Virus record (IMG/VR): IMGVR_UViG_2554235473_000004
Span: 1-43,318 of that record
DNA: 43,318 bases
Direction: 5' to 3' (one strand)
Source of the DNA: a virus
Shown piece by piece: positions 6,239-42,607 of the stretch (position 1 is its first letter; every line of letters begins with the position of its first letter). The notes below the pieces were generated by a model. The model saw only the letters and a list, made by a program, of their open reading frames with translations. It was not told the origin of the DNA and made no database searches. The position numbers and the translations under genes were made by a program.

Positions 6239-6312
6239 GTAACCAGATATCACGATGATTTAACCCCCGGTTAATTATATTTTCGCACTCAATTATTCAA
6301 ATCGAAAAACAA

Positions 6313-7389
6313 TCACTTAGTCATACATTTTAATTGGATTTGTTGTTCATCTATCCCTGTAAGAGGTGCTATAAGCTCACTATCTGTAGGTGCGTACAAC
6401 CAACGGTGATCCAAGCGTTCACGCTCGACAAGGTCGTATGCCCGAAGTTTGTTGAGTTTGTTCCGCCGTGAGCGACGGCTAATCGGTGTGTACTCTCGGT
6501 TCGCGTAGACACCTTCTTTGATCTCCTCGTACTGCGCGTGTAGCTTCCGACCAGTCACTTGACTGCCCTCTCGGATCAACTCGTACAGCACGCGGTGATG
6601 AAACGGAAGCGACTGGAGATTCGCTTCACGGATGCTGGCACGAGCGCGCTCGTAGGCATCGTCGACGTCGGTATCATGAATCGATGTGTGTTCGCACTCA
6701 TTGGCAATCTCGGCAGCCGCCCGGAGCGTCTGAATCCCTTCCCGGGCCACACCGGCGACGTCGTCGGCGATCGTCTCCAACTGCTTGCGTGAGACGGCGC
6801 CGTCGACGAGCCCAACACGAGCCCGGTCAGCAAGGATGTCCGCGAGCTCGTCGACGCCGAATCGACGTAGCTCGATGCGCCCACTGTGGAGGTACTGCCG
6901 AGTGTCAGCCTCTGCGCGGGCCAGCCAGTCATCTGGCTCGTGGCAGATCACGACGACCTCGACGCCGGGCACGGCAATCAGCTGCCCGACAGCTCCAGTG
7001 CCAGCAATGTCGTCGGCCTCGTCAAGGAGCACGAGGAGATCGTCTCCGACGAGCGTCTCTCGAAGCTTCCTGGGAAGCGTATCGTTCGGCGCGTTGTCGA
7101 CGACGGACCCACCGGCGCCTCGTATCGCTTCCCGGAACAGCTCGCCAGTGGTCGTTCCGAGAGCCTGAATCCACGTCCAGTGCGTTCCGAACTCATGACT
7201 GAACTCCTCAAGAACGGTCCGGCCGAGAGCCGTCTTCCCGACACCACTCGGGCCGGCTAGCAGGGCACCCTGGTCGTGGTCGGTACGAGCGCGGTGGAGG
7301 AGGCGGATCAGCTCTTGGACCTGCGCTTCGCGGTGCCGAAGGTCTGGAGGAGGCGTCTCGTCGTCGAAGACCTCTGGACGACGTATCAT
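6313..7389 (-). CDS. orc1/cdc6: Orc1/Cdc6-family AAA+ initiator
   Basis: Walker A GPSGVGKT, Walker B LLDEAD, ELADILADRA sensor region, GVAREGIQTLRAA, C-terminal winged helix. Confidence 0.9.
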   Translation of the reverse strand: MIRRPEVFDDETPPPDLRHREAQVQELIRLLHRARTDHDQGALLAGPSGVGKTALGRTVLEEFSHEFGTHWTWIQALGTTTGELFREAIRGAGGSVVDNAPNDTLPRKLRETLVGDDLLVLLDEADDIAGTGAVGQLIAVPGVEVVVICHEPDDWLARAEADTRQYLHSGRIELRRFGVDELADILADRARVGLVDGAVSRKQLETIADDVAGVAREGIQTLRAAAEIANECEHTSIHDTDVDDAYERARASIREANLQSLPFHHRVLYELIREGSQVTGRKLHAQYEEIKEGVYANREYTPISRRSRRNKLNKLRAYDLVERERLDHRWLYAPTDSELIAPLTGIDEQQIQLKCMTK

Positions 7390-19587: not shown

Positions 19588-22500
19588 TATTCGTCGAACA
19601 CCTCCGTGTCATCAGTGAAGATACTCGCGCGGGTGACGTACGCCTCGCCGTTCTTGAGGTCGGAGAGGGTCTTTTTGACTCGCGAGAGCGGCGGCGCCCA
19701 TTCCGGGCTGTTGGCGAAGTCTCCATCCCACCCGTTAGGCGATTTGTCTTCCAGAGATGTGTTACTCGGGCCGCCGTCGTAGTCGTACTTTATCAGCAGC
19801 CCGGCGGTAGGCGGGGATGCCCCTAACACGTCTAACGCTTCTGCGTCGGACAGTTTTCTGTCGTAGATCCTCACCGTGTCGATTTTGCCCTGAAGCCTCC
19901 TTTCGCCGTCGCTCCAAGAGCCTGTCTCAACCGTGCCGATTTGCTCAATATCGTCTAAGTGGTTCTCAGTGTACGTTTTGATCTTCTCTCCGTCGTGGTA
20001 GAAGTCGCCGGTGTCGGTCCCGTAGTCGTATGTCCAAACCACCTCGTGAACATCCCCTGACACGAAGTCGCTCGAGGGGAGCGCGCTCTCAGACGGCCCG
20101 TTTGTGTGGCTCCATGCGCGGTAACTGCCGCCGCTCGACAGATCCTCTATTTGGAGGAGGTGCTGCCCCGCGCCGACGAGCGATTGCTTAGAGTTAGCCG
20201 TCCCGTCTAAAGCAAACCTGACGGCAATGGAGAAACCACCCCGCGCGTTGGATATGTTAGTGTCCGCTTTAGTGTACCCGTTCGTATAGTTGAGCGAGTA
20301 CTGCGGCGGGAGGTCGCCCCCGTTTTGCGTGTAGGTCGAGATGCCGTCCCACCACATTTCGAGCGCGCCGTCACCCCACCCGCCAACAACGTGGTAGTTC
20401 CACAACTCCACCGTCTCCACGTCGACGCCCTGTTTGAGCGGTATGTCCGACTCCGAGTAGGTGGCCTCGTCTGGCCCGTAGCTCTCGAAGTCGACGCTGA
20501 ACGTCCCAGCCGACCAGTCGAACACGACGAGGAAACGGACCCAGTGGCTGTATCCGCCTTCACCGGTTGCGGGTTCTCGCTGTCCGTTCGCGTCGTCAAT
20601 GACCCACGCAGGATTATCAGTAGCCACGCCGAGTTCGTAGTCACCGTTGCTGTTTTTGAGCCGGACGCCGCCTCCGTAGCTGTTCTCCGTTTCACGCCAA
20701 TAGAACTCGAACGCTCTGATCTGTTCGCCGCCGTCGTGATATACACGGCTGGCTCGGGGTTGGCTGTCGGAATCACCGCTCGGCCTCTGAGCGTACGCGC
20801 TCCAGTCACCGAAGTACGACTCGTCGTCGACGCGCTGGAAGCCCTTCTGTTCGGTCCACGCGTCGAAGTCGCCCTGCGCCTCGAAGCTGGAAACCGGTCC
20901 CGAATACGCGCGGTACCCCGCCTTGTTGTTGGCGTTGTCCTCGAACAGCACGTCCGCGCTGTCAGCGGTCACGCCCGACACGGTGAGTGCTGTCGGCGCC
21001 GGGAGGTTCGTCGTCGCCTCGCCCGCGGCCCGCTCGCTGTCGATCTCTACGCCCGGCGAGCCGCGCCGATGCTGGATGATTGAGTCGTTGACTTCCACCC
21101 GATACCGCTCACCGTCGAGGAGATTCGTGAACGTGTAGGTCTCCATGCCGCTGTCGCGGTTTACCCCGGTGAGCGAGTCACCAGTTGGCCCGAACCACGT
21201 TTCGGTGTCTCGCACGTCCGCCTTCGCCGCGACCGACGCGCTCAACGACCACGTCGCCGTAATCTCGCGTCCTGTAGAGGCGTCGAGCGACAGGTTAGAT
21301 GGGGTGGCGGGTGTCGTATATTCGTGGAGCACGTCGGAGACGACGAATCGGTCGACAGCGTGCTGATCTCCGCCTCCGAGGCCGCCGACGCCGAGGACCC
21401 TGACGCGGCTGTCCGCCGACAGCCACGAGTCGGGGATGATCTCGTGGACCTCGACCCAGCCCTGCTCGTTGTACGAATGGTCCAACCGTTCTACAGTATT
21501 CCACGAAGACCCGTCGTACCACTGGATCTCGGTGTACTCAGACGCGTTGTCCATCGAGCCGGTGGCGAGCGCGCACCGTACGAGTACGCTCGTCTCCCCG
21601 GTCAGGTCGCCGAGGCTCTTTTCGACGAAACCCTCCGCGTCGAAGGTCGCAAAATAGGAACCGCTGTCGGGTCCGTTGATTCCCGTGTCTGCGGCGTTAG
21701 GGTGCGACGCGTCCCCCGTCGCAACGACCCCGGTTGTACTATCCCACGCCGACAGGTCGCCGCTCTCGAAGTCGTCTGCGAAGTAGACGTTCCCCTCGTT
21801 GCCGTAATCAGCGTACACGAAGCCCGAGTCGAGCCCCGAGGAGACGTGTTCGTGGCGTAGACGGAATTGGTATCGAGCATCCCGCTCGAACCACGCTGCG
21901 TCGCCAACGGACACGGTCAGAGACCGCTGAGCACCCTTCGAGACCGCGCCGGTGCTAATCGCATCGGTGTACTGCCATGAGCCGTAGCCTGACCCGCTGT
22001 CCTTCCTGTAGAAAACGGCAGTCTTGTCTGCGACGTCGCTATTATCTGTGTATTCGATGACAAGGGTGTCGCCGTCCGGGCGGTTGATACTCGGGTCGTG
22101 CGGCGAGAGGGGTCGCGTGCGAACCGGATCAGTGTACGTCCAGTCGGACGGCCCGGCGTCGTTGACGGCCCGAACTCGAAACTCAAACTTCGAGTCGATC
22201 CCAATCTGCTCGCCGTAGCCACTGTCCGAGCTCGGACCGTAGCTGTACGTCCCAGCAGTGGACGTCGACGACGGACCGCCGGCGGGCGTCTGCCACGATC
22301 CTTCATCGCGCCGCATCTCTACCTCGAAGTTATCGGGGTCGCCCGCCGACGCGTCCTCGGATATGCTCACGTCGATCTGGTCGTCGGCGACGTACGCGGC
22401 CGACGCGCCCGGCGCGACCGGCGCCACCTCGTAGGTGATGGTGACGAGCCCACCCTGCGAGTAGGAGCGGGAGGAGGTGCCGCGCTCGTTCGCAGTGACG

Positions 22501-38598: not shown

Positions 38599-38769
38599 TC
38601 ACTCGTCGCCGTCGCCAGCGTCATCGCCCGTCGCAGCGTTGTACTTCCGTATCTCTGCGGGTTCGACGCCGACCTGCTTCCCGATCGCAGCGACGGCCAG
38701 CCGAGCGAGGTCGCTCGTCGGGATCGCGCCGAGGGCGACTCCCAAGAGCAGGAGTTCGAGGTCAGTCAT
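38599..38769 (-). CDS. 56-aa membrane peptide (MTDLELLLLGVALGAIPTSDLARLAVAAIGKQVG...)
   Basis: Read manually; overlaps the upstream stop; hydrophobic N-terminus. Confidence 0.7.
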   Translation of the reverse strand: MTDLELLLLGVALGAIPTSDLARLAVAAIGKQVGVEPAEIRKYNAATGDDAGDGDE

Positions 38770-39082
38770 CACGTTGGTCGTCGCGGCCGTCTTCTGGGGA
38801 GAGGTCGATGCTGATCGGGAGGGAGTCGGCAGCGGCCTCCATCAGTTCGCGTTCGATTCCCCAGAGCCGCCCGACTAGCAGGAACACGAGTGCTGTGAAG
38901 ATGCCATAGTACGGCGGCGCCACCGCTTCGATGCCCTCGAGCGTGAGCGAAAGCGTGATCGCGAGCCACACGAGGACGAGGGCACCAGCGATGATGCTGG
39001 CGAGTGGGCGATGTCCGTTAGGCATGATGGACTTCGCGAGGCACTGTGCCTCGTGTTGGGGATCGGCGAGCGGTGGCGTCAT
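38762..39082 (-). CDS. 2-TM membrane protein (holin-like by size and topology only)
   Basis: Two hydrophobic helices and an acidic tail; upstream of the terminase genes. Confidence 0.65.
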   Translation of the reverse strand: MTPPLADPQHEAQCLAKSIMPNGHRPLASIIAGALVLVWLAITLSLTLEGIEAVAPPYYGIFTALVFLLVGRLWGIERELMEAAADSLPISIDLSPEDGRDDQRDD

Positions 39083-39198
39083 GAGACATCCATGAGAGAC
39101 TGGCAGTCACAGGGCTTCGCAGAGTTGTACGAACACCTGTACTCAGAGCACCGGTTCGGTCGGTACGTTGACGGTCGAAGTAGATATGAGCCGTTCAT
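39079..39198 (-). CDS. Possible 39-aa Cys-containing peptide
   Basis: MNGSYLLRPSTYRPNRCSEYRCSYNSAKPCDCQSLMDVS; ATGA overlap with the next gene. Confidence 0.35.
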   Translation of the reverse strand: MNGSYLLRPSTYRPNRCSEYRCSYNSAKPCDCQSLMDVS

Positions 39199-39374
39199 GA
39201 TCAGCGGTACTTGCGAAGATTAAGCGGGTCGTCCATCGTGTGCCGCGGTGGGATCTGGCTGTAGTCGTAGCATACGAGTGGTCGAGGAGGGTGCCGGCCT
39301 CAAGCAGAGATACGGACGTTGTTTAATTCTTCTTGAGATAAATTTAAATCGGCAGTAAATATGACATATAGTAC

Positions 39375-39857
39375 ATGTCAGACTGGAACTGGATAACTGA
39401 CGAGGGTTCAGTAGGCGAACTTCCAGTTCGTGTCCTCCCCGATCAAACTGCTGAATTCTTGGATTTTGTTGAGGGGGTTATGATTAATTACGAGAACACC
39501 ACCAGCCAGTCACTAGGTGCGGGTGACAGGTGTATCCTGACAGCCAAAATCGTAGATGTTGATATCAACCAGCAGCCTGTATGGATTACTGTAGAGCCAC
39601 TAAATGTAGAGTTTCTTCGACGGTCTGAGCCCAGCGATTCTGAGATCGACGATATGATGGTCTACTTAGACGGGGCACGAAAGCGCCGCGAACGGGAGCG
39701 CAGAGAAAAACAATGCGAAAATTGCGAGACAATTGACTCTTCTACTCGCCTCTCTGTTGAGACTAAGATTGGTAACCGAGAGCTACACCACTGTGCCAAC
39801 TGCGAGCGGTTGCTCTCTGTAGATGAATACGAGCGGTGGATGAGCGCAAACCGATAG
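39375..39857 (+). CDS. Hypothetical protein with C-terminal Zn ribbon
   Basis: CENC...CANC; AT-rich; own AT-rich promoter region at 39320-39370. Confidence 0.8.
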   Translation: MSDWNWITDEGSVGELPVRVLPDQTAEFLDFVEGVMINYENTTSQSLGAGDRCILTAKIVDVDINQQPVWITVEPLNVEFLRRSEPSDSEIDDMMVYLDGARKRRERERREKQCENCETIDSSTRLSVETKIGNRELHHCANCERLLSVDEYERWMSANR

Positions 39858-39907
39858 CGTTTGAGAACCAGTTCTCACAACTTATTCTGAGTTGGGTGTT
39901 TGTAATA

Positions 39908-40858
39908 TTATTCAGAGGTAGCTACTTGATCCAGACTCTGTAGAGACTGAACCGCCTGCTGCCGAACATCTGGCGCCGTATCCTCAGCTAAATGCTGAAG
40001 TACTTGACTAGATGCCTCACAGTCGAGATTCCCCAACGCGAGAGCAGATGCCTGTCTAACATCAGGGTCTTCATCTTTGGCTGCAGGGGAGATGGCCTTC
40101 ACATACGCGGTCTGTGAGTCACCAGCTGTACGACCGATGTTTCCGAGGGCAATCACTACGCCTGTCTGGACTATTGAGTCTGAATAATCAACAAACGAGG
40201 CTAGCTGTTTTGAGAATGGCTGGAACGCCGGCGAATAGTCACGAGAATACCACTTGATTGTACTTGCGGCAAGCTGACGCTCCAGCTTATTCTCATTGTG
40301 TAGTGATTGGATCAGCGTCTCAGCAATTGACGATGCGTCTCTATTGCTTTGTTTGAGGACTTTTCCAGGCGTTCCTTCTGAGACGTGATTGATCAGTTCA
40401 AGAGCGCCACATCTAATCTCTGGTTGATATGAGTCGACGTACTGAAGCGTATCAGCGGCCCCCTCTGGAGTTGGAGATGTTTTCAATGACCGTATCTGCC
40501 TGAGACATCTATAGTCGAGAATTCCCAGTATAAGTCCCCAAATCGAAGCGACTGTACCAATCAAGAATGTAACAATACCAACTAAACCAACAAGTTCGAC
40601 ATCACTCGAATTAAGCATTAAACAGAACATGCCCGTTATAAAAAACAAAGAGTGTGGACTTCCTAGTGCGGAACTGAGCTTGGAAACGTTGACCTCTCTT
40701 TGATTGCTGCCTGACTTGTACATGACAAGTCCAGGAACATAGAACACGGACGGTGATTGATATATGTCATCAATAGCTGCAAACCATTGACGCCTGAAGT
40801 GATTTACAACACGACGGTGGATGTTCACTCTTGAACCACCAGCATACTCAATCAGCAT
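39908..40858 (-). CDS. Membrane-anchored HEAT-repeat protein
   Basis: Two TM segments followed by HEAT-like repeats (DEDPDVRQASALALG; DTAPDVRQQAVQSL); AT-rich. Confidence 0.8.
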   Translation of the reverse strand: MLIEYAGGSRVNIHRRVVNHFRRQWFAAIDDIYQSPSVFYVPGLVMYKSGSNQREVNVSKLSSALGSPHSLFFITGMFCLMLNSSDVELVGLVGIVTFLIGTVASIWGLILGILDYRCLRQIRSLKTSPTPEGAADTLQYVDSYQPEIRCGALELINHVSEGTPGKVLKQSNRDASSIAETLIQSLHNENKLERQLAASTIKWYSRDYSPAFQPFSKQLASFVDYSDSIVQTGVVIALGNIGRTAGDSQTAYVKAISPAAKDEDPDVRQASALALGNLDCEASSQVLQHLAEDTAPDVRQQAVQSLQSLDQVATSE

Positions 40859-40990
40859 TTGACAGACACAATAATTGTGTCGTTTATTTTTACTTAAATT
40901 ACTGTCAGGCAGGGACCACAGGAATAGGAAGCATTGGGAAGGAACGCCTGCTGTTGGTCAGTAAAATAAGCGGCATTATCGCCTATCTGG

Positions 40991-41007
40991 AGTGGAAACG
41001 GAGGGGT
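40991..41007 (+). promoter_or_regulatory. ORB-like element with G-string
   Basis: AGTGGAAACGGAGGGGT matches the 3' part of the archaeal ORB consensus. Confidence 0.4.
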
Positions 41008-41026
41008 ATGTCAGTGTATCTCGTAG

Positions 41027-41126
41027 GGCGACGCCGGGGATCGAACCCAGCACGGGATGGGTCCGTCTCAGGCTTTGGTTTCGCCTGAGCCCATAGGACC
41101 GTCCGTGACCACACCAGTGGCGTCGC
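41027..41126 (-). tRNA. Degenerate tRNA-like element with an intron-like insertion (anticodon CCT/Arg if spliced)
   Basis: 7-bp acceptor GCGACGC/GCGTCGC, GGG-TTCGATC-CCC T-arm, CGTGC variable loop, extended anticodon arm with a CTCAGGC/GCCTGAG hairpin; poor D-arm. Confidence 0.55.
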
Positions 41127-41129
41127 AAG

Positions 41130-41299
41130 GCGACCGGACTTGGCAGTTTAGACCGAGCAAGATACGATCGACGCGAAGCTCCTCACGCTCACGCACAGCA
41201 TGTCGTGGTAGTACTGCCGGTCGCTCGTGTGGCTCAGCACTCCCTCGGGCGCTGACCTGGCCTTCACAGTGAAAACTGTGAACGCCACGCCGTCGGGAG
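41130..41299 (-). ncRNA. Candidate structured ncRNA between the two tRNA-shaped elements
   Basis: Long hairpin at 41240-41299; second domain closed by GCGACCGG/CCGGTCGC plus CAGT/ACTG. Confidence 0.5.
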
Positions 41300-41300
41300 A

Positions 41301-41372
41301 TGGATCGACTCGGAATCGAACCGAGGCACGCGACGTCTTCAGCGTCGTGCTCTCCCACTGAGCTATCGATCC
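41301..41372 (-). tRNA. tRNA-Phe(GAA), 72 nt, CCA not encoded
   Basis: GGATCGA/TCGATCC acceptor, GCTC/GAGC D-stem, CGACG-CTGAAGA-CGTCG anticodon arm, CTCGG-TTCGATT-CCGAG T-arm. Confidence 0.95.
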
Positions 41373-41701
41373 CGTCGCTTCTCGCGGCGAATCGCCTCGC
41401 GAACGTTCCGCAGTTGGCCTTCGGTCCAGCCGTTCGCGAGCGCGGTCTCTCGGTCGATGCCCTGCGGGTAGCCCGTCACGACCTCTCGGCTCTGCGGGTC
41501 GAGCACGAGGCGGTAGTGGATGCCGTCGACCCACTGCTCGGTCGCGACGTAGCCGTTGCCGAGTTGGTGGCGAACACCCTCCTCGATACACGCCCGGATG
41601 GCCTCGCCGTTGAGGTGGCGGCCGGGTTTCCGGACGCGGTCGCCGAGGTGTGGCGTCGGGCTCCACGCGCTCGGCTCGCGCGGCAGTTCCTGTGCGCTCA
41701 T
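41363..41701 (-). CDS. Small protein with DUF4258/RelE-like (BECR) RNase pattern
   Basis: PTPHLGDRVR...AIRACIEEG...YRLVLDPQSREVVTGYP; stop codon lies inside tRNA-Phe. Confidence 0.65.
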   Translation of the reverse strand: MSAQELPREPSAWSPTPHLGDRVRKPGRHLNGEAIRACIEEGVRHQLGNGYVATEQWVDGIHYRLVLDPQSREVVTGYPQGIDRETALANGWTEGQLRNVREAIRREKRRDR

Positions 41702-42201
41702 GCCGGCACCTCTCGGCGGGCGTCCTCGTCCGGATCGGCGGTGTCGTCGCGGGTAACGGCTCTCCGGATGGCCGCCTCGATCGCGTCGCCGAGGCAGTCG
41801 TCGACGTGCTCGTCGTTCTCCCGGGCCTGGAGCGCACGGGCAGCGAGTGTCTGTCGGTCGATAGTGACGTCCTTCGCCTCGAGCGTCCGGATCGTGTTCT
41901 GGATGAGCTCGCGAACGCGCTCGTCATCAAGGCGGTCGTCGCCGGCGTCGTCCCAGTACCGGTGGTCCGGCCCCTCCGTCCCGCAGTGGTCACAGAACAC
42001 ACCTTTGGCCTCGCTCGCCGAATCGGCAGGACCGTAGCCAATCTCGGTCGTCTCCTGGTTGCGCTCGTAGTGGCTCTCGAACTCGCGGGTGAGCCCGCTG
42101 CGAGCCGGGTCGACACGCTCGACCCGGATGACACGGAGGCAGTTGATACAGACGTCCGGCGCCTGAAGCAGGTGCTCGAAGTATGCTGGACTCTCTGTCA
42201 T
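41698..42201 (-). CDS. Zn-binding hypothetical protein (167 aa)
   Basis: CINC...CDHC; ATGA-coupled to the next gene. Confidence 0.8.
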   Translation of the reverse strand: MTESPAYFEHLLQAPDVCINCLRVIRVERVDPARSGLTREFESHYERNQETTEIGYGPADSASEAKGVFCDHCGTEGPDHRYWDDAGDDRLDDERVRELIQNTIRTLEAKDVTIDRQTLAARALQARENDEHVDDCLGDAIEAAIRRAVTRDDTADPDEDARREVPA

Positions 42202-42349
42202 AGGTACAGTCTCCCCCGCATGCCGTCTTTCCGGCCCTGTCGTCTCAGCCCGTGCCTTCTTGGCCGCGGGCCACCGGTCGCCCGGCTGTCGTCACCCGTG
42301 TGTTGCTTGGCCGAGGGCTTAAGTGGTCCATCGACCGCCATTTTGTCGG

Positions 42350-42607
42350 TCACCCGTTGACCCGCCACTCGGACTGCGGCGGCTCGGTGTGTCGCGGGGA
42401 GCAGGAGACGAGATCTTCGTCATAAAGCTGGCGCAGCGCCCGCAGGACGGACCGCTCGGGGCGCGCTGTCCGGTGGGTGAGCTGTCGGAGGGTCCGCGGA
42501 CCGCCGGCGTTGTACAGCTCGAGGTAGACGAGTGACGCCGTCGGCGGGAGGTCGGCGAGTTGCTCGCGGGTGTGTCGGTCGAGGTCACCGAGAGCAGCGT
42601 CAGTCAC
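42350..42607 (-). CDS. Winged-helix (TrmB-like) regulator
   Basis: LPPTASLVYLEL...TLRQL...RSVLRALRQLYDEDLV. Confidence 0.8.
   Translation of the reverse strand: MTDAALGDLDRHTREQLADLPPTASLVYLELYNAGGPRTLRQLTHRTARPERSVLRALRQLYDEDLVSCSPRHTEPPQSEWRVNG

Follow-up and report, generated by a model that had tools for sequence, protein, structure and literature searches.

In BJ1-like haloarchaeal viruses, the gene preceding a viral tRNA ends on the tRNA's own UAG, whether it encodes a putative toxin-type ribonuclease or an unrelated small protein

Results

A Viral tRNA Supplies the Stop Codon of the Gene in Front of It

In a lineage of archaeal tailed viruses, the gene before a viral tRNA always borrows the stop codon of that tRNA, whatever the gene may be and also after a change of tRNA identity. 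We describe this arrangement for a provirus in which the borrowing gene is ORF112, and for the loci related to it (IMG/VR record IMGVR_UViG_2554235473_000004; the whole stretch of 43,318 nt that was analysed is referred to below as the window; Table 1). Judged from the comparison of these loci, the overlap goes with the tRNA locus rather than with the RNase that ORF112 probably encodes.

Table 1. Features of the ORF112–tRNA-Phe region, in window coordinates.
Feature	Position	Strand	Description
Small winged-helix (TrmB/MarR-like) regulator	42350..42607	minus	BJ1 ORF39 position; first gene of the syntenic block
ORF167, CxxC...CxxC protein	41698..42201	minus	BJ1 ORF41 orthologue (52% identity, E = 7e-58); phrog_27334
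ORF112	41701..41363	minus	112 codons plus TAG stop; last codons CGG GAT CGA TAG
Overlap of ORF112 and tRNA-Phe	41363..41372	minus	10 nt; stop at 41365-41363 = tRNA U8 A9 G10
tRNA-Phe(GAA), virus-encoded	41372..41301	minus	72 nt, without encoded CCA; ARAGORN, Rfam RF00005
Element A, conserved structured RNA	41125..41300	minus	~175 nt; directly past the tRNA 3' end (discriminator base)
Element B, tRNA-like	41020..41127	minus	14 of 29 pairs with compensatory changes (18 viruses)
Conserved leader	40984..41019	minus	~40 nt; in relatives leads into the ATG of the BJ1 ORF43 homologue; ATA in the window, with foreign low-GC DNA from there

The window corresponds to C26:170675–213992 of a 3.6-Mb haloarchaeal assembly and is collinear with Halorubrum virus BJ1 over its full length (tblastx). 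Together with a tyrosine integrase and with att repeats located at a tRNA gene of the host, this collinearity identifies the provirus as BJ1-like (Beejeyvirus, Graaviviridae). The repeats, 22 bp long and in direct orientation, are located at C26:170617–170638 and C26:217091–217112 (−57 and +46417 in window numbering, just outside the window) and enclose a provirus of 46.5 kb. Next to the left repeat is the integrase gene, which continues off the left end of the window; integration was into an intron-bearing tRNA-Met(CAU), whose 3' end forms the right repeat. As the att repeats lie at tRNA-Met, the viral tRNA-Phe is internal cargo and not the attachment site.

The geometry of the overlap was determined from the ORF coordinates, the ARAGORN call, and the match of the tRNA to the Rfam model (67 bits, E = 1.4e-12). 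Together they place the ORF112 stop codon exactly at nucleotides 8–10 of the tRNA-Phe, just as a preliminary description of this DNA had claimed. The third base of the CGG codon is G1 of the tRNA, and the codons GAT, CGA, and TAG make up tRNA positions 2–10. A second in-frame stop, UGA, is found at 41341–41339 (minus strand), eight codons past the UAG; it coincides with U33-G34-A35 of the anticodon loop in the 72-nt versions of the tRNA and is out of frame in the 74-nt versions.

Related loci were collected by scanning viral, genome, and metagenome collections for DNA patterns, which succeeded where a protein-based scan of viral contigs for ORF112 relatives returned no matches. The scans yielded 22 non-redundant loci with an intact tRNA in the slot. 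In all 22, the upstream gene terminates at the UAG of tRNA positions 8–10, and the spacer between gene and tRNA is zero. The overlap is, in other words, not unique to this genome. Its conservation follows the tRNA slot: ORF112 occupies the slot in only three loci (the window, L003, and L004), and in the other 19, including BJ1, the slot gene is unrelated to ORF112 and encodes 59 aa wherever it is complete (one of the 19 copies is cut by a contig end). This runs against the idea, put forward in the preliminary description, of a built-in coupling of the RNase to the viral tRNA or to an RNA antitoxin. No homologue of the 59-aa gene was found anywhere in the genome that contains the window, and ORF112 therefore replaces the 59-aa gene rather than adding to it. 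A tree of ORF167, the CxxC protein encoded upstream of the slot, left undecided whether the cassette was switched once or twice.

The overlap was also retained where the tRNA itself has changed. Three acceptor pairs differ in L019, where the overlap is kept and the ORF ends in LDQ instead of LDR. A tRNA-Asn(GUU) with a Phe-type acceptor stem (GGAUCGA) fills the slot at L045:3191-3266, with both the ORF overlap and the downstream element A kept; this looks like a swap of the tRNA body inside a fixed acceptor frame.

Homologues of ORF112 were found in other settings as well. The closest, in L006-L010, keeps the overlap although the tRNA has decayed: it terminates at a TAG located 13–15 nt inside a 65-nt tRNA remnant that retains the acceptor stem and the T-arm. 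The Rfam tRNA model did not match this remnant, and the sole ARAGORN call was an 89-nt tRNA-Ala with a badly mismatched acceptor stem. The distant homologues of L038 and L039 (~43% identity), phiH, and HSTV-2 end at a stop codon of their own and lack a neighbouring tRNA; no tRNA adjoins the homologue of phiCh1 either.

Two further arrangements were noted. At L039:1655-2030, the ORF112 homologue has its own TGA stop, followed by ~370 nt of non-coding DNA, the ends of which by eye resemble an acceptor stem and a T-arm around a large insert. In L012, an extra tRNA-Trp(CCA) (6259-6333) is located between tRNA-Phe and element A, and element A again begins at the base directly after the 3' end of this tRNA.

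We also looked for comparable overlaps among the 48 tRNAs of the host genome. An open frame that ends at TAG 8–10 and spans 100 codons or more was found for three of them. One is ORF112; the other two frames, which have no family match, run antisense to genes for an M20 peptidase and a MoxR ATPase, respectively. ORF112 is thus the one genuine coding gene of this genome with its end inside a tRNA. For most tRNAs, U8-A9-G10 yields an in-frame TAG in one of the three frames. Once a slot gene lacks its own stop, a frame match has a chance of about one in three, and the upstream gene families seen amount to two independent cases. The conserved overlap could reflect plain inheritance together with purifying selection on each of the two genes, without adaptive value.

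Likely Co-Transcription of the Slot Gene and the Viral tRNA

The viral tRNA-Phe was assessed via its substitutions across 18 loci. Compensatory double changes were found in 9 of its 21 pairs, and the GAA anticodon is invariant in these 18 loci. With the cloverleaf and the Rfam score given above, this is the profile of an elongator tRNA-Phe, and the pattern of changes indicates that the tRNA is functional and under selection. The host has its own canonical tRNA-Phe(GAA) on contig C5, preceded by an AT-rich region. The viral and host tRNAs are identical in the anticodon loop and different in the stems.

As a proxy for a promoter, we used AT-richness at the position of the archaeal TATA box, a crude measure that calls for at least five A/T out of six at −42 to −18. 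Such a stretch precedes 31 of the 48 tRNAs of the genome. By the same crude proxy, no AT-rich TATA-like box was found at −42 to −18 in any of the 18 viral loci (0 of 18; maximum, four A/T of six). As the viral tRNA has no TATA-like box, co-transcription with the upstream gene is likely. The locus combines the elements of a tRNA-punctuation layout, i.e., gene and tRNA on the same strand, zero spacer in all 22 loci, and no promoter of the tRNA's own by this proxy.

The best explanation of these observations, and one we hold to be fairly probable, is that ORF112 occupies a cassette slot before a promoter-less, co-transcribed viral tRNA, and that the tRNA punctuates a viral operon. The slot, between the gene for the CxxC protein and the viral tRNA, would house an exchangeable accessory gene. 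Whether ORF112 or the 59-aa gene, this gene has no stop of its own and ends on the UAG of the near-universal U8-A9-G10 of the tRNA. A single transcript would carry the winged-helix regulator, the CxxC protein, the slot gene, the tRNA, elements A and B, and the next ORF, and RNase P and tRNase Z of the host would cut it at the tRNA and probably at element B too. Cleavage by RNase P between 41373 and 41372 would strip the slot mRNA of the last base of codon 110, the final two codons, and the stop. Each RNA molecule would then give either a mature tRNA or a normally terminated slot mRNA, but never both. Such mutual exclusivity of intact mRNA and mature tRNA had been proposed for ORF112 in the preliminary description; it would hold for one and the same RNA molecule if gene and tRNA are co-transcribed, but it is not specific to ORF112, as the 59-aa gene would be affected alike.

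The same layout allows a stronger reading, in which the tRNA and elements A and B are obligatory RNase P/tRNase Z punctuation of the early-to-middle operon of Graaviviridae and the stop codon has been selected to lie inside the tRNA. Maturation of the tRNA would then leave a non-stop slot mRNA, so that the output of the cassette gene, in this provirus an RNase with toxic potential, would be capped or timed in inverse relation to tRNA processing. We regard this version as unlikely; if true, archaeal viruses would gain their first described case of a tRNA-punctuation switch.

The tRNA might instead be driven by a promoter of its own, located within the upstream ORF, and the shared UAG would be a matter of compaction in a GC-rich, stop-poor genome with no consequence for expression. 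The ready supply of an in-frame TAG by U8-A9-G10 would suit such an account, as would the overlaps between neighbouring genes of the operon and a C-terminal tail of ORF112 that varies among homologues. However, the 18 viral loci lack the AT-rich element that most host tRNAs possess, and a zero spacer was observed in every locus, across two gene families and one change of tRNA identity; we consider this account quite improbable.

Structured RNAs Downstream of the tRNA

The comparison brought to light a conserved and unannotated structured RNA region of ~300 nt downstream of the tRNA. Its two parts, elements A and B, are present in all these viruses, with or without ORF112, and lie within an unannotated 318-nt gap of the BJ1 record. 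At its 5' side, element A has a hairpin domain whose apical loop is U-rich and whose internal loop is of the tandem G-A type. Its other component is a 12-bp long-range helix that closes a variable region of ~80 nt; the covariation in this helix amounts to 7 and 4 double changes. In element B, a canonical T-arm and a 6-bp acceptor stem are combined with a D-like hairpin of 4 bp, whose loop reads UGGY, and with a long extended arm. Two loops of the extended arm, CUAU(U)GGG and GGCGARACCMAAGCC, are invariant.

No anticodon of element B is conserved across the aligned viruses. A reading of element B as an intron-containing decoding tRNA (U33-CCU-A37) was considered and rejected: the column assigned to U33 contains T, G, or C and covaries as one half of a base pair, and those assigned to the anticodon are part of a covarying helix. 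When elements A and B were searched against Rfam at a permissive threshold, no meaningful family was recovered. The matches included tRNA-Sec (18.6 bits, E = 0.56) and, as a weak partial match of element B in L006, mascRNA (E = 0.22), and no match to RNase P or SRP RNA was found among those at E ≤ 10.

An acceptor stem and a T-arm are the minimal features needed for recognition by RNase P and tRNase Z, and a tRNA-like structure upstream of the Haloferax 5S rRNA is cleaved by tRNase Z. Element B is like such tRNA-like processing elements (the Haloferax structure and mascRNA of MALAT1) in having an acceptor stem and a T-arm but no anticodon. It is unlike them in its long extended arm with two strongly conserved loops, and its cleavage is a prediction.

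The downstream RNAs also bear on whether ORF112 might be paired with an RNA antitoxin. No tandem repeats of the kind expected for a type III (ToxIN-like) RNA antitoxin were found in 40850–42300. Elements A and B are shared with viruses that lack ORF112, and therefore neither is an ORF112-specific antitoxin.

ORF112 Likely Adopts a BECR Toxin Fold

ORF112 is a real gene, with homologues of 86, 80, and 64% identity in syntenic viral contigs. A profile search recovered 99 representative clusters, and ORF112 matched phrog_14318 with an E-value of 4e-26. Homologues are found in phiH (gp91), phiCh1 (ORF90), HSTV-2 (gp88), and other haloviruses, and these matches indicate a family that is widespread in haloarchaeal tailed viruses.

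Family assignment of ORF112 by sequence was sparse. None of the Pfam families matched at E ≤ 1, and NCBIfam and PADLOC gave no match. Among 60 relatives of ORF112, four weakly matched DUF4258 (PF14076; best E = 2.3e-4), and the nearest named Atlas clusters were DUF4258 as well (scores of 0.80–0.83, which are a lead only). The AlphaFold model built from 60 sequences (pLDDT 94.5) has helices at residues 17–24 and 32–41 and four strands, and shows the N-terminal helices on a four-stranded antiparallel sheet that characterise the BECR fold. Foldseek returned weak rows only for this model. In an exhaustive VIA-align comparison, nearly all of the top ~25 rows were BECR toxins, at moderate Z scores of 7.1 to 4.8. 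The best rows were a Salmonella TA toxin (7vd7, Z = 7.1), BrnT (3u97, Z = 7.0), and the tRNase CdiA-CT NC101 (5i4q, Z = 6.7); RelE, colicin E5, MqsR, YoeB, ParE, YafQ, and HigB followed at Z scores of at least 4.8, and colicin D was also among the top ~25.

A BECR (RelE/BrnT/colicin-like) fold is likely for ORF112, because the VIA-align rows are consistent and are joined by the DUF4258 matches. The RelE/DUF4258-like pattern noticed in the preliminary description was borne out by these comparisons, and the putative RNase it proposed does have a predicted fold of the BECR type. Going by the model, ORF112 is probably a toxin-type ribonuclease, distantly related to DUF4258. With this, a fold and a likely activity class can be assigned to a family of haloarchaeal virus proteins (phiH gp91, phiCh1 ORF90, phrog_14318).

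The residues H18, R22, R28, G42, and T76 are conserved among the homologues. ORF112 shares with DUF4258 and other BECR toxins (BrnT, RelE, CdiA-CT NC101, colicins E5 and D) a compact alpha/beta fold, an N-terminal helix bearing His and Arg (the conserved H18, R22, and R28), a small size, and an upstream partner gene. It differs from DUF4258 in scoring below the Pfam threshold, in an extra C-terminal helix (residues 94–111), and in being carried by archaeal viruses. DUF4258 is a BECR toxin family of uncharacterised activity, for which an antitoxin-toxin gene order and fusions to MqsA, a zinc-ribbon antitoxin, have been described (PMC11980606). A recent preprint classes it as a BECR toxin in the colicin-like branch (bioRxiv 10.64898/2026.08.28.747851, 2026).

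A chromosomal paralogue of ORF112 was found on contig C16 of the same genome (L002:1261-2019, minus strand = G000:C16), with 31% identity over the core. It has an N-terminal and a Cys-rich C-terminal extension and in this recalls the DUF4258-MqsA fusions (PMC11980606).

Possible Partners of ORF112

The gene directly upstream of ORF112 suggests a partnership of another kind. ORF167 and ORF112 could be a toxin-antitoxin-like pair of type II, in which a zinc-ribbon antitoxin and a DUF4258-like toxin would serve provirus maintenance or the exclusion of other viruses, and the tRNA overlap would then be incidental. The stop codon of ORF167 and the start codon of ORF112 overlap by 4 nt (ATGA), in antitoxin-then-toxin order, as known for DUF4258 along with the MqsA fusions (PMC11980606). 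In L038, L039, phiH (gp90-gp91), and phiCh1, too, the gene before the ORF112 homologue encodes a CxxC protein, and the C16 paralogue bears its Cys-rich extension at the C-terminus. However, ORF167 is a conserved core gene that is present where ORF112 is absent, as BJ1 ORF41 and as an orthologue in all 19 loci with the 59-aa gene. We thus found no adjacent antitoxin that co-varies with ORF112, and the distribution of orthologues indicates that ORF167 is not a dedicated partner of ORF112. Nor did ORF167 match Pfam, NCBIfam, or PADLOC, and it resembles phiH gp90 only marginally (E = 0.003). Its AlphaFold model (16 sequences, pLDDT 55) is confident solely in a C-terminal three-helix bundle. Overall, we take a toxin-antitoxin pair to be possible, if somewhat doubtful.

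The preliminary description had favoured a coupling built into the overlap: ORF112 would be a tRNase or mRNase paired with the viral tRNA-Phe, a cleavage-resistant replacement for the host tRNA, or with a downstream RNA antitoxin. Some features speak for such a coupling. Some BECR-fold relatives of ORF112 are tRNases (colicins D and E5, CdiA-CT NC101); the host already has a tRNA-Phe with the anticodon loop of the viral one and different stems; and where nucleases have cleaved host tRNAs, phage tRNAs can take their place (PMC10264068, PMC11555353). The provirus is like the phages with counter-defence tRNAs in carrying a tRNA redundant with the host (PMC10264068, PMC11555353), but unlike them in that the viral anticodon loop is identical to that of the host.

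The comparative survey leaves little room for this coupling. In 19 of the 22 loci, the same tRNA, the identical overlap, and the downstream RNAs occur with the unrelated 59-aa gene and without ORF112. Conversely, one ORF112 lineage (L006) has lost the functional tRNA and retains a remnant, and the homologues of phiH, phiCh1, HSTV-2, L038, and L039 do without an adjoining tRNA, the distant ones ending at a stop codon of their own. A tandem-repeat RNA is missing as well. We therefore consider the coupling very improbable, and the comparative result, with exchangeable genes before a punctuating tRNA, replaces the account of a toxin tied to its tRNA.

Comparison with Known Systems

In animal mitochondria, tRNAs punctuate the transcripts, from which tRNA-processing enzymes free them, and stop codons are completed by polyadenylation. 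The tRNAs of Mimivirus and chlorella viruses are part of mRNA-tRNA polycistrons (reviewed in PMC4810235). The provirus locus, as read from sequence alone, is like these cases of tRNA punctuation in having a tRNA that is probably embedded in a coding transcript and an overlap of CDS and tRNA. It is unlike them in belonging to a tailed virus of an archaeal host and in having the stop codon inside the tRNA, so that processing would make a non-stop mRNA.

The nearest precedent is the unremarked annotation of BJ1 itself. In the BJ1 record (NC_008695), ORF42 (19803-19982) overlaps tRNA-Phe (19973-20046) by the same 10 nt. Both sets of coordinates are given in the BJ1 paper, and the overlap is left uncommented (Pagaling et al. 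2007, PMC2194725). BJ1 and the provirus share the order of winged-helix regulator, CxxC protein, slot gene, tRNA-Phe, ~320-nt gap, and ORF43; they differ in the slot gene, which in BJ1 encodes the 59-aa protein unrelated to ORF112. The BJ1 paper and a 2021 survey of archaeal tailed viruses discuss neither the tRNA-overlap arrangement nor elements A and B. The locus points to a tRNA-based processing of archaeal viral operons that these two sources do not describe.

A Low-GC Segment beyond the Leader

The provirus departs from BJ1 beyond the conserved leader. BJ1 ORF43-46 (exonuclease and others) are absent at 38600–40984 of the window, and a low-GC (46–50%) segment of ~2.4 kb is found instead. 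This segment begins exactly at the position of the ORF43 start codon, where the ATG reads ATA. It encodes a HEAT-repeat protein (39908–40858, minus strand), with a weak PADLOC match to HEAT_CxxC_PD-DEXK (E = 5e-6), and a 160-aa ORF (39375–39857, plus strand). The provirus may be defective in replication; alternatively, the segment may represent a cargo or defence cassette that was swapped in.
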